Shown piece by piece: positions 11,479 through 20,540 of a DNA stretch of 64,000 nucleotides (position 1 is its first letter; each line of letters starts with the position of its first letter). The DNA comes from Burkholderiales bacterium (lineage in GTDB: Bacteria > Pseudomonadota > Gammaproteobacteria > Burkholderiales > Burkholderiaceae_C). The translations under genes and the position numbers were made by a program. Location of the stretch: positions 100,973 through 164,972 of the forward strand of contig JACPOK010000038.1 in NCBI GenBank assembly GCA_016191525.1, read 5' to 3'. Below the pieces are notes generated by a model. That model was not told the DNA's origin. It worked only from the letters and a program-made list of their open reading frames with translations, and ran no database searches.

Positions 11479-11506
11479 TTGACTCGACAGCACTGCCGGA
11501 GCACAC

Positions 11507-13651
11507 GTGAGCGAGCAAGAAGACCAGGGCCTGAAAGAGGCAGCCGTCCCCCTCTTTGACATCGTCGTCAGGATGCCGCCCGGCGCGCGGCTCGAAGACG
11601 TGGCGCGGCTCGCGCAGGCCGCGGGCGTGCCCGCCGAGCGGGTCGAGAAACTGGTCACGGTTCTGCGCAGCGTTCCGCAGGCCAAGATCGGCGCGAGCGT
11701 ACCGCGTGACCGCGCGGACCGCGCCAGGGAACAATTCGGCAAGGCCGGGCTGATCGTCGAAATCACCCCCGTCCTCACCGTCCAGCACATGGTGACGGGC
11801 GCCTTCGACGGCATGCACGAATGCCCCGGCTGCAAGACCCGCGTGGTGCTCCCCGAGAACAGGCAATGCCCGAACTGCGGCGTGTTTGTCGACAAGGTGA
11901 CCGACGACGTCCTGCTGCGCCGCAAGATCATGGAGCAGGAAAAAAGCCAGATGGACTTCCGGTCGGCGCGCGACGCCAAGGACACCGAGAAGCGCATCCG
12001 GGAAAGCCTGGAAGCGTCGATACGGGCCAAGGTCCGCGCCGAGCTCGAAGAAAAGTACGGCGGCAAGAAAGGCGGCTTCCTGGGCCGCTTTGCCGGCGCC
12101 GCGCGCATCGCCGGGGCCGGCTTGCTGGTGGCGGTGGCTTTTCTTGGGGGCAAGGGAACAACGGCCTCGGGCTTTTCATGGTCGGAGGCCACCAACTGGG
12201 GGCCCTTCAAATCAGCGAACGGTTCCAAGACCGCCGACACGGGCAAGATACTTGATGCCGCAGGTGCGGCCGGTGCCGCCGGCGCAGGTGCCAAGGGTGC
12301 CGCGGGCGGGGGGACGGCCACGGCCGAGGCAGGCAGCACGGGCGATGTGGATATCGACGATCCGCTGATCCAGGCCGCGGGCGGCAAGAGGATTGGCGCC
12401 AAGGGCCTGACCATCGAACAGGCCGTGGGCGCCGCGCAGGCGCTGGGCAAGGCGGTTGGCAACAACACGATCGACCGCGCCATGAACGGCGGCGGGCCTG
12501 CCGGTCCGGCGGGCGCTGGCGGGGCGGGCGCTGGCGGGGCGGGCGCGGGCGGGTCAGCGGGCGGGTCAGCGGGCGGTGGCGCCGTCGCGGGCGGGCCGGC
12601 CGACGGCACCGCCGGCGGGGCGGCGGGCGCGGAAGCACCGCCGCAGCTCAAGGCCCTGCTTTCACTCGAATTCGCCAAGCAACTGGCCGAAATGGGCCAG
12701 GTGCCGCGGGCCATGGAAATCATGCGCGCGCTGAAGGGCTCGCCCAAAGTCACGGGTGACGCGGCAGTGGCTTCGGCCGCGCGGATCGCTGACCTGGAGA
12801 TCAAGGCCTGGGCCACCCAGGCGCAGGGCGAGGCACGCGCCAAGCAGGTGGCCGAGGGCCTGATGGCCGAGGCCGGCGCCCTGAGCGACGCGGCGGAGCG
12901 CACCCAGGCGCTGGTACGCGTCGGCGTGATCCTCAGCCGCAGTGGCCGGCTGCCTTTCGAGACGGTGCGCTCGTTCTTCACGGCCGCCAGTGAATCGCTC
13001 AAGGCGGTGTCCGACCAGCGCGTTGCCGCCGCCACGCTCAGCGACTGGGCCGTCGGCCTGGGCGAGGCCCTGATGGCCGAGGCAACCAACCGCGCCCGCA
13101 CGGGCGCGTGGGCCAAGGCCCAGGCAGCGGGCGGGCAGGTCGAGGGCCTCGCCAAGCAGCTTTCGGACGCCTCCTCGCAGGCCCGGCTCGCGGCCATCGA
13201 TTACCAGGTCAAGCAGCAGCTGGGCCAGCAGGACAAGTCGACGCAAAGCATGGAGACGGCGCTCAAGCAGGTGGCCAAGGCCGGCGGCCTGGCCGAGCGC
13301 GCCGCCCTGTTGCGCGCCGTCGGCCAGCTCTCGGGGGGCGCCGCCACCGAGAAGATGCAGGCGGCAGCCACCGAGCTCGGAGCCCAGCTGGCCTCGAAAA
13401 CAGGCACCGAAAAAGCTCGCGGCCTGGCCCAGCTGTCGCTGCTGTATGCCGACGCGGGCCTGCGCGGCAAGTCCTCGGAGTTCAGCAAGATGGCCCAGTC
13501 GTCGTCGGGCCTGAGCCCGGCCGATTCGGCTTCCGTGAATGCGGACCTGATCGTGCGCAGCGACCTGGCTTCCGCCCGCAACCTGCAAAGCGTGGGCCTG
13601 TACGCCGAGTGCGAGGCGGTGCTGCAGCGGCTGGCGGGCTACCTGCTGTAG
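11507..13651 (+). CDS. Hypothetical membrane-anchored protein: double CxxC zinc ribbon, coiled coil, TM, Gly-rich linker, Ala-rich helical C-terminus
   Basis: GTG start with GGAG SD; CPGC...CPNCG; hydrophobic segment AGAGLLVAVAFLGG; codon usage consistent with coding. Confidence 0.8.
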   Translation: MSEQEDQGLKEAAVPLFDIVVRMPPGARLEDVARLAQAAGVPAERVEKLVTVLRSVPQAKIGASVPRDRADRAREQFGKAGLIVEITPVLTVQHMVTGAFDGMHECPGCKTRVVLPENRQCPNCGVFVDKVTDDVLLRRKIMEQEKSQMDFRSARDAKDTEKRIRESLEASIRAKVRAELEEKYGGKKGGFLGRFAGAARIAGAGLLVAVAFLGGKGTTASGFSWSEATNWGPFKSANGSKTADTGKILDAAGAAGAAGAGAKGAAGGGTATAEAGSTGDVDIDDPLIQAAGGKRIGAKGLTIEQAVGAAQALGKAVGNNTIDRAMNGGGPAGPAGAGGAGAGGAGAGGSAGGSAGGGAVAGGPADGTAGGAAGAEAPPQLKALLSLEFAKQLAEMGQVPRAMEIMRALKGSPKVTGDAAVASAARIADLEIKAWATQAQGEARAKQVAEGLMAEAGALSDAAERTQALVRVGVILSRSGRLPFETVRSFFTAASESLKAVSDQRVAAATLSDWAVGLGEALMAEATNRARTGAWAKAQAAGGQVEGLAKQLSDASSQARLAAIDYQVKQQLGQQDKSTQSMETALKQVAKAGGLAERAALLRAVGQLSGGAATEKMQAAATELGAQLASKTGTEKARGLAQLSLLYADAGLRGKSSEFSKMAQSSSGLSPADSASVNADLIVRSDLASARNLQSVGLYAECEAVLQRLAGYLL
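12509..12577 (+). repeat. In-frame tandem repeats (3 x 15 bp, 2 x 12 bp) encoding a GAGGA/GGSA linker
   Basis: GCGGGCGCTGGCGGG x2 plus a variant; TCAGCGGGCGG(G/T) x2. Confidence 0.75.
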
Positions 13652-15991: not shown

Positions 15992-16864
15992 ATGGGACTG
16001 AGGCTGAAGTTCAACCTGGTGTTGATCGTGGTGTTTCTCGCCGGTTTCGGCGCGGCGGGATTCGTCTCGCGCCAGCTGCTGCAGGAGAACGCCCGCGACG
16101 AGGTGATCCGCAACGCGCGGCTGATGATGGAGGCCGCCACCTCGGTGCGCACCTACACCGTCGACCAGATCCGGCCTCACCTGATCAAGCAGCTGGAGGA
16201 AGTGTTCCTGCCCCAGACGGTGCCGGCCTACGCGGCCACCGAAGCCATCAACGAGCTGCGCAAGAAGTACCCCGACTACAGCTACAAGGAAGCCACGCTC
16301 AACCCCACCAACCCGCGCGACCGCACGGCTGACTGGGAGGCCGACCTGGTCAACAAGTTCCGGGCCAGCGCCGACATCAAGGAAATCGTCTCGGAGCGCC
16401 AGTCGTCCACCGGCCGCACGCTGTTCATCGCCAAGCCGATCCAGATCACCAACGCCGCCTGCCTGCAGTGCCACACCACCGCCGCCATGGCCCCGCCCAC
16501 CATGGTCAAGATCTACGGCGAGGCCAACGGCTTCGGCTGGAAGCACAACGAAATCGTCGGCACCCAGCTGGTCACGGTGCCCATGGACCTGCCGCTGCGC
16601 AATGCCGACCGCGCGTTCAACACCTTCATGGCGTCGCTCGCGGCGGTGTTCGTCGTCGTCTTCATTGTGCTCAACATGATGCTCAGCTGGATGATCATCC
16701 GGCCGATCCGCCGCATGTCGCAGTCGGCCGACAAGATCAGCACGGGCGAATTCAACGAGCCTGAGTTCAACGAAAAGGGCCGGGACGAAATGGCCGTGCT
16801 GGGCAGCTCGTTCAACCGCATGCGCCGCAGCCTCGAAAAAGCCATGCAGATGATCGGCGAGTAA
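15992..16864 (+). CDS. Membrane sensor: TM - periplasmic DUF3365/Tll0287-like heme-c domain - TM - HAMP, no output domain
   Basis: YSYKEATLNPTNPRD, CLQCH heme-c motif, IIRPIRRMS...DEMAVLGSSFNRM HAMP, then stop. Confidence 0.82.
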   Translation: MGLRLKFNLVLIVVFLAGFGAAGFVSRQLLQENARDEVIRNARLMMEAATSVRTYTVDQIRPHLIKQLEEVFLPQTVPAYAATEAINELRKKYPDYSYKEATLNPTNPRDRTADWEADLVNKFRASADIKEIVSERQSSTGRTLFIAKPIQITNAACLQCHTTAAMAPPTMVKIYGEANGFGWKHNEIVGTQLVTVPMDLPLRNADRAFNTFMASLAAVFVVVFIVLNMMLSWMIIRPIRRMSQSADKISTGEFNEPEFNEKGRDEMAVLGSSFNRMRRSLEKAMQMIGE

Positions 16865-16889: not shown

Positions 16890-19220
16890 ATGGCTGAACG
16901 CCCCACTCCCCCGCCCGCGGCGCCGGCGGACGCCGCCGCGCTTCCCGCGGGCTACCGCATCCACGAGTACCAGATCGAGCGTTCGCTGGGCGGCGGCGGC
17001 TTCGGCATTACCTACCTGGGCACCGACAGCAACCTGCAGCTGCCGGTCGCCATCAAGGAATACTTTCCCAGCGACCTGGTCACGCGCGGCCCCGACCAGA
17101 GCGTGAGCGTGCGCGGCGGCGCCAGTGACGAGGCAAAGGCAACCTACGAATGGGGGCTGGAGCGCTTCCTGGACGAGGCCCGCGCGCTGGCCACCTTCCG
17201 CCACCCCAACATCGTGCGGGTGCTGCGCTACTTCCGCCAGAACGGCACCGCCTACATCGTGATGGAGTACGAGTCGGGCCTGTCGCTCAAGCGCTGGCTG
17301 CCGCAGAACACTCCCCTGTCGCAACGCGCCCTGCTGTCCATCGTCTACCCGCTGCTGGACGGGCTGGAAGCCGTGCACAAGACGGGGTTCCTGCACCGCG
17401 ACATCAAGCCCGACAACATCTATGTGCGCGCCGACGGCACGCCGGTGCTGCTGGACTTCGGCGCGGCCCGCCGCGTCACGGCCAACAAGGACATGACCAA
17501 CATCGTGAGCCCGGGTTTCGCGCCGTTCGAGCAGTACCACTCGCAAGGCAACCAGGGCCCCTGGACCGACATCTATTCGCTGGGCGCGGTGATGTACTGG
17601 ATGACCACCGGCAAGAAGCCCATGGAGTCCGCCTCCCGCGTCAAGACCGACGGCATGCTGCCGGCCTCCGGACTGGCGGAAGCCAGCGTGTTCGGCGCCA
17701 CCCTGCTGCAGGCCATCGACTGGGCGCTGCTGCCGGACGAAGGCAAGCGGCCCCAGACCGTGGGGCAGTTCCGCGCCGCGATCCAGGGCTCGGAAAAGAC
17801 CGGGGCGGCATCCGCGCTGGACTTTGACCTGGAGGGCGACGGCCCCGCGCTTTCCGCCGCGGGCGATGCGCCTTCCGTGCCCGGCCGCGTCACGGGCCCC
17901 TCCGGCGCCCTGCGCAAGAACCTGCTGTGCACCATCATGTTCCTGGACCTGGTGGGTTATTCCATCCGCTCGGTGGACGACCAGGTGGCGCTGAAGAAAC
18001 TTTTCAACGAACTGATCGGCAAGGCGCTCAAGGGCGTGCCCGAGGACACCCGCATCTCCATCGACACGGGCGACGGCGCCGCCATCTGTTTCATGGGCGA
18101 CCCCGAGGAGGCGCTGCAGTCGGCATTGCTGCTGCGCGACCTGCTGGGCCAGCGCTACGGCCACGCCCTGTCGGTGCGCATCGGGCTGCACATGGGGCCG
18201 GTGCGCGTCATCGCCGACATCAACGACCGCGTCAACGTGGTGGGAGACGGCATCAACGTGGCGCAGCGGGTCATGGATTTCGCGCAGGCCAACCAGGTGC
18301 TGGTTTCGCGTTCGTACTACGACGTGATTTCGCGCATCACCGACGACACGGCCGACATGTTCCAGAACCTGGGCCAGTACGAGGACAAGCACGGGCGTAT
18401 GCACGAGGTCTATGCCGTAGGCACCCCGAACGCCAACACCACCCGGCGGGAAGGCCCGTCCACCGGCTACACCCAGACCCAGCCGATGCGCACCATCAAG
18501 CCGCTGGACGCCGACGAGGTGATGGAAGTCGAGGCCGAGCTGGCCCGCCTGATCGGCCCTCTGGCCCGCGTGCTGGTGCGCAAGGCCCGGCCGCTGGCCG
18601 CCAGCCTGCAGGAGTTGCGCGACGCGCTGGCACCCACCATCCAGGAGCCGCGCGCGCGCGAAGCCTTCATCGCGGGCATCCACAGCTCGAGCCGGCCCAC
18701 CCACAGCCATCCGGTCAGCCGGCCCGCCGGCAACAGCAGCAAATCGCCGACGTCCAGCCGCACCAGCCAGTGGGGTGGCCTGGGGCCCAGTTCCCAAAGC
18801 ATGCCGCTGACCTCGCGGCCCCAGCCCAGTCAGCCCAGCCAGCCGCGCAGCCAGCCCATGAGTCAACCCATGAGCCAGCCTGCCAGCCAGCTGCAGCGCG
18901 GCCAGCTGACCCAGCGCCCGCAGGCCGTGCAGCGCAGCCAACCCATGAGCCAGCCCATGAGCCAGCCCATGAGCCGGTTGAACCGTGGCGCGGACTCCAC
19001 CCGCCAGGTGGACATTCCACCCGAGGAAATGGTGATCGTGGAGCACACGCTCAGCAAGTTCATCGGGCCGATGGCCAAAATGCTGATCCGCAAGGAAATC
19101 GGCCGTTGCATCGACTTCAAGGAATTTGCCGCGGCCATCGCCGCCAATATCGACCACCCCGGCCAGCGCGAGGCGTTCGTGCAGGCGCTCAAGCGGGGCC
19201 TGCCCAAGCGGCAGTTCTGA
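16890..19220 (+). CDS. Hanks-type Ser/Thr kinase fused to a class III nucleotide cyclase and two C-terminal repeat domains
   Basis: Kinase: GGGGFG, VAIKE, HRDIKPDN, DFG, DIYSLG. Cyclase: FLDLVGYS, TGDG, RIGLHMGP, GDGINVAQR. Confidence 0.88.
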   Translation: MAERPTPPPAAPADAAALPAGYRIHEYQIERSLGGGGFGITYLGTDSNLQLPVAIKEYFPSDLVTRGPDQSVSVRGGASDEAKATYEWGLERFLDEARALATFRHPNIVRVLRYFRQNGTAYIVMEYESGLSLKRWLPQNTPLSQRALLSIVYPLLDGLEAVHKTGFLHRDIKPDNIYVRADGTPVLLDFGAARRVTANKDMTNIVSPGFAPFEQYHSQGNQGPWTDIYSLGAVMYWMTTGKKPMESASRVKTDGMLPASGLAEASVFGATLLQAIDWALLPDEGKRPQTVGQFRAAIQGSEKTGAASALDFDLEGDGPALSAAGDAPSVPGRVTGPSGALRKNLLCTIMFLDLVGYSIRSVDDQVALKKLFNELIGKALKGVPEDTRISIDTGDGAAICFMGDPEEALQSALLLRDLLGQRYGHALSVRIGLHMGPVRVIADINDRVNVVGDGINVAQRVMDFAQANQVLVSRSYYDVISRITDDTADMFQNLGQYEDKHGRMHEVYAVGTPNANTTRREGPSTGYTQTQPMRTIKPLDADEVMEVEAELARLIGPLARVLVRKARPLAASLQELRDALAPTIQEPRAREAFIAGIHSSSRPTHSHPVSRPAGNSSKSPTSSRTSQWGGLGPSSQSMPLTSRPQPSQPSQPRSQPMSQPMSQPASQLQRGQLTQRPQAVQRSQPMSQPMSQPMSRLNRGADSTRQVDIPPEEMVIVEHTLSKFIGPMAKMLIRKEIGRCIDFKEFAAAIAANIDHPGQREAFVQALKRGLPKRQF
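18849..18975 (+). repeat. 12-bp in-frame repeats encoding SQPM
   Basis: AGCCA(G/A)CCCATG-like units in two clusters. Confidence 0.8.
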
Positions 19221-19228
19221 AGCCGCTT

Positions 19229-19898
<670 letters not shown>

Positions 19899-19900
<2 letters not shown>

Positions 19901-20540
19901 GGATGTGGGTGGTTTGCGCCGCCGCGACTTTATCGCGGCCGCCTTAGCTGGCAGTTACACGGTGGCCCTGCGGGCCGCCGGGGAAAGCACCATCCTGGTC
20001 CTGGGCGACTCGCTCAGCGCCGAGTATGGCCTGAAGCGGGGCGCGGGCTGGGTGGCCCTGCTGGAATCGCGCCTGGCGGCCGGAAAAATCCCCGCCCGGG
20101 TTGTGAACGCCAGCATCAGCGGCGAAACCACTTCGGGCGGCCGCTCACGGCTGGCCGCCCTGCTGGCGCAGCACAAGCCCACGCACGTGGTCATCGAACT
20201 GGGCGGCAACGACGCGCTGCGCGGCCTGCCCCTGGGCAACACCGAGGAAAACCTGTCGCAGATGACGCAGGCGGCGCAAAAAGCCGGCGCGCGCGTGCTG
20301 CTCGTCGGCATGCAGGTGCCGCCCAACTACGGCGCCGACTACAGTCGGCGCTTCGCCGGCCTGTTCGAGAAGGTGGCGAAGGTACACGAGGCGAGCCTGG
20401 TGCCTTTCCTGCTCAAGGGCGTGGCCGATGGCGACGACGCCGTGAAGATGTTCCAGCCGGATCGCATCCACCCCCGGGCCGAGGCCCACCCGGCGATGCT
20501 GGACAACGTCTGGCCTGAGCTGAAGAAGCTGCTCAAGTGA
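19899..20540 (+). CDS. tesA: Arylesterase / acyl-CoA thioesterase I (SGNH hydrolase)
   Basis: GDSLS, NASISGETT, ELGGND, DRIHP; RRRDF Tat-like N-terminus. Start reassigned to 19899. Confidence 0.9.

Follow-up and report, generated by a model that had tools for sequence, protein, structure and literature searches.

A conserved clade of class III cyclase domains with an unusual base-selecting pair, linked to haem receptors and Hanks-type kinases

Which nucleotide, if any, would be cyclised by a class III cyclase domain that carries neither of the residue pairs by which adenylyl and guanylyl cyclases choose their base? The question is raised by a gene in a 64,000-nucleotide stretch of DNA from a Burkholderiales bacterium (contig JACPOK010000038.1 of assembly GCA_016191525.1, positions 100,973 to 164,972 of the forward strand; this whole stretch is called the window below). 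The gene (16890-19220, + strand) encodes a soluble protein of 776 residues, in which a Hanks-type Ser/Thr kinase domain is followed by a class III cyclase-homology domain (CHD) and by two helical bundles, and it lies directly downstream of a gene for a haem-containing receptor. We conclude that the CHD belongs to a clade of class III cyclases that is separate from others, well conserved and as yet uncharacterised, with the hallmark [ILVM] plus Asn at the two base-choosing sites. We put the probability that the domain is an active cyclase output at roughly 0.55, with a purine cyclic nucleoside monophosphate (cNMP) as the most likely product.

Receptor-kinase systems of this kind entered the biochemical literature only in 2026. 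We find that a cyclase domain is a partner of many such receptors; it stands in for the kinase, lies beside it or is fused to it, and has a conserved pocket that fits neither the rule for cyclic AMP (cAMP) nor that for cyclic GMP (cGMP). The Ile/Asn signature provides a sequence rule by which members of the clade can be found.

Fold and active-site residues of the cyclase domain

The CHD (residues 345-510; 17922-18419, +) matches Pfam Guanylate_cyc (PF00211) over residues 348-486 with 30.3 bits (cut-off 21.9). The first-pass annotation of this DNA had proposed, by eye, that the domain keeps its catalytic residues and has non-canonical specificity residues; the span on which it was based, 17925-18330, corresponds to residues 346-480 and contains all the motifs that it quoted. 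Eighty family members were aligned, the window domain first, and the result was searched as a profile against the PDB sequences. Asp353 of the F-L-D motif (17946-17948) and Asp395 of D-T-G-D-G-A-A (18072-18074) aligned with the two metal-binding Asp residues of PDB 3mr7, and the family's [IL] position, Ile391 in this protein (18060-18062), aligned with the Lys of 'VKTTGDG' in the same structure, the site of the adenylyl Lys or guanylyl Glu. Asn449 (18234-18236), which takes the place of the adenylyl Asp/Thr or guanylyl Cys, aligned with Cys566 of the rhodopsin-guanylyl cyclases (6ao9, 6sir); this Cys precedes the G-D of 'CLVGD' by four residues and is Asp in the engineered E497K/C566D adenylyl form (6aoa, 5oyh). 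Asn456 and Arg460, the transition-state pair in G-I-N-V-A-Q-R (18255-18269), aligned with the Asn and Arg of VNTASR in the rhodopsin-guanylyl cyclases. An identical register was obtained when the domain was aligned to the ten other CHDs of the genome, seven of which have Lys/Asp or Lys/Thr at the two sites and two more of which lack the Lys. Lys500 (18387-18389), in an invariant D-K-H-x-R-x-H motif, probably corresponds, judging by its place in the fold, to the Lys of the last strand that binds the phosphates.

The mapping by eye was therefore right in both respects: Ile occupies the Lys/Glu site and Asn the Asp/Cys site, and the catalytic Asp, Asp, Asn and Arg are all present (Asp353, Asp395, Asn456 and Arg460), as confirmed by the alignments and by the codons. 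At the purine site the alignments gave Ile/Asn, not the Lys/Asp pair that the annotation had named as evidence against itself. Adenylyl cyclases select their base with Lys and Asp, and guanylyl cyclases with Glu and Cys, Ser, Thr, His, Ala or Gly (PMC4215837). Ile391/Asn449 departs from the adenylyl rule, also in its wider form of Lys with Asp or Thr at the purine-selecting sites, and from the guanylyl rule with any of its six second-site residues, so that it was fair to infer that the pair is a signature of neither cAMP nor cGMP.

The fold is that of a class III cyclase. An AlphaFold2 model of the CHD monomer, built from the 80-member alignment, was confident (predicted local distance difference test score, pLDDT, 92.9; predicted template-modelling score, pTM, 0.89), and it matched class III cyclases with VIA Z 19-21 (3et6, 1ybt, 3r5g, 1y10, 2w01, 1wc1). 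The best matches, Z 21.0 to 3et6 and 20.5 to 1ybt, extended over 160-167 residues with a root-mean-square deviation of 2.1-2.3; Foldseek matched the model to class III cyclases at E 1.2e-12. The cyclase-like proteins with DUF2652 (Biol Direct 2016), which were considered as possible relatives, are a different family from the window CHD.

Next, conservation of the unusual pair was examined. A full HMMER search with the domain against 1.84 billion representatives gave 5187 matches at E <= 1e-3 and 503 at E <= 1e-30. The family alignment, made from the best 150 matches and the query, has 156 rows that are 47-85% identical. More than 90% conserved in it are F-x-D (with Asp353), R-x-x-[ILV]-D-T-G-D-G-A-A, N-[IVL]-[IVL]-G-D-G-I-N-V-A-Q-R and D-K-H-x-R-x-H; Asp353, Asp395, Asn449, Asn456, Arg460 and Lys500 are each present in at least 93% of the 156 representatives. 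Asp353 is kept in 149 of them, the Lys-equivalent position is Leu in 106, Ile in 32 and Val in 11, and the second specificity site is Asn in 146. The clade also has invariant residues of its own, namely Gln365, Lys369, Asp443, Asn445, the DKHxRxH motif, and Asp392 within the invariant D-T-G-D-G-A-A. Among close homologues (at least 70% identity), 117 of 121 combine both metal Asp with [ILVM]/Asn and with the Asn, the Arg and the Lys. Because the pattern is nearly invariant both in the 156 representatives and in these close homologues, it is a clade signature and not drift. In a tree, a long branch (Shimodaira-Hasegawa-like approximate likelihood ratio test, SH-aLRT, 100) sets the clade apart from the ten other CHDs of the genome.

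The nearest ESM Atlas clusters are labelled 'hypothetical protein' with PF00211, and a literature search on the clade found no paper. Matches at E <= 1e-10 are present in 16 of 40 other genomes of the genus, and no CHD of the clade was found at E <= 1e-20 in 60 other genera of the same family. The domain occurs as kinase-CHD-bundles, as CHD-bundles lacking the kinase, and as an N-terminal CHD with one transmembrane (TM) helix and an extracytoplasmic tail (~400 aa). Further fusions are to ankyrin repeats, to PEGA (member P0182, which retains the clade motifs and has Ile at the Lys site) or to a second CHD of another type. In two members of the last sort, P0128 and P0130, a second non-canonical CHD of the DTAGDG ... 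GIAVHxGAR type lies C-terminal of the bundles. Complementation of the two CHDs as in C1/C2 pairs was considered for these and set aside: the second CHD is of the other type, has its own metal Asp and gives no clue.

Receptor linkage and docking bundles

The gene just upstream (15992-16864, +) encodes an output-less receptor with a Cache_haem domain, a TM segment and a HAMP domain ('CHH'). Its Pfam matches are Tll0287-like (DUF3365; E 2.2e-38) and HAMP (E 3.4e-14), it has a CLQCH haem-c motif, and it ends after HAMP. Domains of the DUF3365/Tll0287-like type are haem-c-containing Cache domains, and the Cache_haem-HAMP protein of P. azotoformans binds nitric oxide (NO; PMC12889525). An output-less CHH receptor was found to bind the PknB-like kinase encoded in its operon with nanomolar affinity; by cryo-electron microscopy the kinase docks via two C-terminal helical bundles, whose helices IGPLARFLVRKSLN and IGPIARIVVSRALR each touch one HAMP subunit, so that one kinase with two bundles spans both subunits of the receptor dimer, and HAMP Thr256 is phosphorylated faster by the kinase when NO is bound (bioRxiv 10.64898/2026.05.25.727664). 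Both preprints appeared in 2026 from the Zhulin and Crane laboratories, and signalling downstream of the receptor and kinase is stated there to be unknown.

The window protein ends in two bundles of this kind. Bundle 1, with IGPLARVLVRKARP (18525-18734, +), and bundle 2, with IGPMAKMLIRKEIG (18990-19217, +), are homologous to each other (segments of ~55 residues, 37% identity, E 2e-11), and by-eye comparison matched both motifs to those of the HAMP-contacting helices in the preprint, IGPLARVLVRKARP to the P. azotoformans helix IGPLARFLVRKSLN. Because they carry IGPLARVLVRKARP and IGPMAKMLIRKEIG, the window bundles appear from their sequences to be the same HAMP-docking modules as those of the P. 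azotoformans kinase. On the receptor side, the HAMP connector begins 'ISTGEF', and its Ser-Thr is a possible counterpart of Thr256, as judged from the sequence.

The pairing of receptor and CHD genes is recurrent. In the window, the start of the CHD gene lies 25 nt past the receptor's stop and has GGGAG upstream. A receptor gene stands directly upstream of the CHD gene in more than 40 related loci, including seven of the seven loci fetched from the genus. Among 80 loci of named genomes (locus numbers with L in what follows), it precedes 36 kinase-fused genes, from Ramlibacter, Polaromonas, Hylemonella, Rhodoferax and Rhodocyclaceae. Genes for CHD-bundle proteins lacking a kinase also follow the receptor directly (L049, L054, L069, L085, L097), leaving no space for a kinase gene.

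We then asked which partners accompany the receptor itself. The window receptor was searched against 300 genomes of the class, and 23 loci with a clear receptor (L103-L125) were inspected. A kinase is the only partner in 15 of the 23 and a CHD-bundle protein the only partner in five; in two (L104, L119) a kinase-bundle gene and a separate CHD-bundle gene enclose the receptor gene, and in one neither type of partner lies within 1.5 kb. At the positions tested, Asp, [Leu/Val], Asp, Asp, Asp, Asn, Arg and Lys are present in every one of the seven CHD partners, and Asn449 is kept in six. The window protein looks like a fusion of the two partner types. L104 and L119 are from other families; there the two types are separate and compete for, or share, one receptor. 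Some CHD partners are short (270-300 aa) with a single detectable bundle, which would be consistent with two such partners on each receptor dimer.

The TM-anchored subclade (Gallionella, Sideroxydans and others) has no CHH receptor. All 34 of its loci have the full active-site signature, and in 28 of the 34 a gene for a tail-anchored Hanks kinase lies just downstream, usually with a gene for a ~140-aa lipoprotein between the CHD and kinase genes and with housekeeping genes around them. The CHD clade is therefore tied to Hanks kinases through fusion or adjacency. The three-gene module of CHD-TM-periplasmic tail, ~140-aa lipoprotein and tail-anchored Hanks kinase (within L059-L099; for example L073 5983-8616 and L082 5983-8919) is conserved in Gallionellaceae, Methylophilaceae and other Betaproteobacteria. 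Its lipoprotein has no Pfam match, and ten module loci share a flank, between dnaX-ybaB-recR-pseudouridine synthase and a CptA-like gene.

Catalysis and choice of nucleotide

The CHD most likely works as an ordinary two-metal cyclase; it would form a head-to-tail homodimer and convert a nucleoside triphosphate to a 3',5'-cyclic nucleoside monophosphate, with Asp353 and Asp395 holding the metals, Asn456 and Arg460 stabilising the transition state and Lys500 holding the phosphates. The bundles would dock the protein on the HAMP of the receptor encoded just upstream, making the cyclase a second output, beside phosphorylation, of a receptor type that has been shown elsewhere to bind NO. Because its base pocket is differently constructed, the sequence alone does not tell which product is made. 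Two features of the sequences argue for catalysis, the near-invariance of all residues of phosphoryl transfer and the existence of receptor partners in which the CHD is the sole enzyme-like domain. Loss of Asp353 is found in a Polaromonas sub-lineage (L039, L040, L042, L050, L051, L052, L055). In these proteins Asn449 is changed to Ser/Thr in four and position 391 to Thr/Met in three; outside this lineage both positions are fixed. This co-drift with the loss of Asp353 indicates that positions 391 and 449 are both tied to the active site. The seven Polaromonas losses count as one or a few events, since they belong to essentially one lineage.

A number of points weigh against an active cyclase output. 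In 10 of ~146 fused proteins (about 7%), a metal Asp is replaced by Asn, Gly, His or Glu with the kinase residues intact. Two paralogues from the same genus keep the bundles although their second metal Asp, Asn449 and Asn456 are gone, which means that the protein can persist without cyclase chemistry; these two (L100 2579-3646, L101 2607-3755) have no receptor gene within 2.5 kb upstream. If each receptor dimer has one partner, it would have only a single CHD, and class III catalysis needs a CHD dimer, so that either the complexes pair through the CHD or the stoichiometry of the CHD partner differs. The linker that joins the kinase to the CHD looks disordered and has no evident helical coupling; reading it by eye, we saw no coiled coil or cyclase transducer helix. 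Canonical CHDs were also found in all genomes examined, including five with the TM-anchored form, so that no argument from necessity can be made.

Could the CHD then be mainly a nucleotide-binding or dimerising scaffold, one that pairs kinase-receptor complexes or regulates the kinase, with chemistry secondary or absent? The kinase residues are intact in all ~146 fused proteins, including the 10 from several lineages in which a CHD metal Asp is replaced, and the degenerate CHD-bundle paralogues persist in the genus. Even in proteins that have lost the metal Asp, GDGINVAQR and DKHxRxH are invariant, which suggests a structural or binding role; a solved structure with the title 'class III adenylyl cyclase-like ATP-binding protein' (6yii) matches at Z 13.2; and the CHD left unpaired on the receptor dimer fits a scaffold too, unless CHD pairing is itself the signal. 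However, the catalytic residues are complete in 97% of close homologues, in all 34 TM-anchored forms and in those receptor partners that lack a kinase, where the CHD is the sole enzyme-like domain and a pure scaffold would need no metal Asp, Asn, Arg or Lys. The window protein itself has the full catalytic set. We regard a scaffold as less likely than an active cyclase but as a serious rival; if the domain is inactive, a conserved pseudo-cyclase that organises a kinase would also be informative. A more dismissive account, in which the unusual residues are meaningless drift in a decaying or misaligned domain, could appeal to the modest Pfam score and to the by-eye origin of the first mapping. 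It is refuted by the conservation data and has next to no probability: three independent alignments agree, the model is confident, and hundreds of clusters at 47-90% identity conserve the residues.

If the CHD is instead an active cyclase, its main product might still be neither cAMP nor cGMP, and the haem receptor would then have a messenger of its own, either a cyclic pyrimidine or some other nucleotide. Neither classical pair is present and the replacement pair is strongly selected across the clade. The canonical Lys/Asp and Lys/Thr cyclases in the same genomes would fit a non-redundant product, and their coexistence is compatible with a distinct product, not a demonstration of one. Pyrimidine cyclases share the fold (Z 15.8-17.7), and Asn recognises uracil elsewhere (N143 of PycTIR, and a CD-NTase subclade; PMC11224242). 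Purine cyclases, however, lie nearer than the uridylate and cytidylate cyclases, both in structure (Z 19-21 versus 15.8-17.7) and in sequence, and the PADLOC profile for PycC (PDLC00734) scored 27.9 bits in the C-terminal half only, the level of general class III homology. No Pycsar-type effector is adjacent: the neighbours checked for a TIR or TM effector encode the Cache_haem-HAMP receptor, a SpoU methylase, an ABC ATPase and a GDSL lipase. The locus lies in syntenic housekeeping DNA with no defence-island context, and no relatives were found on plasmids or phages. PycC clades moreover select pyrimidines by different, clade-specific residues, for example Y50/D94/R97, F100/R142/Q144 or F60/K104/F109 (PMC11224242), and the two classical positions therefore do not predict pyrimidine use. 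The first-pass suggestion of a product that is neither cAMP nor cGMP, possibly a cyclic pyrimidine, holds as far as the non-canonical pair goes; its pyrimidine step has gained no positive support, and we consider a product outside cAMP and cGMP doubtful, less probable than a scaffold. Were it true, the clade would provide bacteria with a dedicated NO-responsive second messenger that belongs to ordinary physiology and not to phage defence, parallel to Ser/Thr phosphorylation.

Among mycobacterial cyclases, Rv0386, with Gln/Asn in place of the Lys/Asp pair, is cited second-hand as still making cAMP. Rv1900c, with Asn/Asp, also makes cAMP. Both are active adenylyl cyclases with some guanylyl activity, and work by Castro et al. 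and Sinha et al. in 2005 reportedly established that mycobacterial cyclases with non-canonical pairs are active. A purine cNMP is thus the most likely product of an active window CHD, cAMP ahead of cGMP, possibly with loose specificity. An active cyclase would give these receptors a second-messenger output, a bacterial parallel to the NO-activated soluble guanylyl cyclase (sGC).

Gene layout and comparison with known systems

The 776 residues are a stop-free translation of 16890-19220, and the GC content at third codon positions (0.91) is as high as in the other genes of the window. No TM segment was seen in the protein on reading by eye. The kinase domain (residues 27-300; 16968-17789) matches Pfam Pkinase (PF00069) over residues 27-249 at E 2.5e-36 and has Lys56 (VAIK), Asp171 (HRD), Asn176 and Asp189 (DFG), four catalytic residues that are all kept in every one of the ~146 fused homologues. 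A Gly/Ala/Ser/Pro-rich linker, delimited by eye (17790-17921), leads from it to the CHD. The two bundles are separated by a Ser/Pro/Gln-rich linker with short tandem repeats (18735-18989), in which 9- and 12-nt units at 18821-18975 (the 12-nt unit at 18936-18975) encode 'SQPM'-type sequence; among homologues, which are 690-790 aa long, this linker differs in length. PF26309, annotated on homologues, would cover the C-terminal bundles, judging by which truncated homologues have it. Assignment to the TOMM system kinase/cyclase fusion (TIGR03903) was ruled out, with 62.5 bits in the kinase part only and a cut-off of 705.75.

The receptor and CHD genes are flanked by a divergent gene for the SpoU methylase and a convergent one for the ABC ATPase, and no promoter or terminator above chance level was found on scanning the operon. 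The GDSL-lipase open reading frame (ORF), called from its first TTG, and the convergent ABC ATPase gene overlap by ~365 nt (19229-19900, - strand, and 19536-20540, +); the true start of the GDSL-lipase ORF is probably further downstream, its Pfam match beginning only at residue ~143. Elsewhere in the window, an ORF of 722 aa (11483-13651, +) has gene-like codon bias and no Pfam match at E <= 0.001.

The closest described system is that of P. azotoformans, where a gene for an output-less Cache_haem-HAMP receptor lies beside one for a soluble PknB-like kinase, in the same order as here, and where the kinase likewise ends in two related bundles with IGPxAR-type helices. The P. azotoformans kinase has a linker of ~30 residues and no CHD, whereas the window protein has a whole CHD at that place. 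NO binding, docking and HAMP phosphorylation were shown for the P. azotoformans proteins; the Ramlibacter proteins are known here from their sequences. The word 'cyclase' occurs twice in the text of the P. azotoformans preprint and never refers to a receptor partner, whereas CHD-bundle proteins are the second common partner in our survey.

Canonical class III cyclases (Rv1900c 1ybt, Chlamydomonas guanylyl cyclase 3et6, rhodopsin-guanylyl cyclase 6sir/5oyh, CyaB 3r5g, CyaC 1wc1) share with the window CHD the fold, the two metal Asp, the transition-state Asn and Arg and the terminal Lys, and differ from it in having Lys/Asp(Thr) or Glu/Cys(Ser, Thr, His, Ala, Gly) where it has Ile/Asn. Rv1900c is a top structural match, and Rv0386, as cited second-hand, has the same Asn at the second site. 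In contrast to the hydrophobic first site of the window domain, that of Rv0386 and Rv1900c is polar (Gln or Asn), and these cyclases belong to other CHD lineages with no known link to a Cache_haem receptor or Hanks kinase. The Pycsar cyclases PycC (7r65, 8jsz, 8jsf) resemble the window CHD in having a class III fold and pocket residues that are not of the purine type, and they establish that this fold can make cyclic UMP or cyclic CMP (PMC11224242); in defence loci they are accompanied by TIR or TM effectors, of which the window locus has none.

The logic of the system, a haem NO sensor in control of a nucleotide-signalling enzyme, is also that of animal sGC and of bacterial enzymes coupled to H-NOX or NosP, and the catalytic domains of sGC (3uvj, 4ni2) are among the structures that match the CHD model. 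The likeness to sGC is one of functional analogy only: the window system has a covalent c-type haem in a periplasmic Cache domain, and its putative cyclase is a separate, kinase-fused polypeptide that would be recruited to the receptor by docking bundles.

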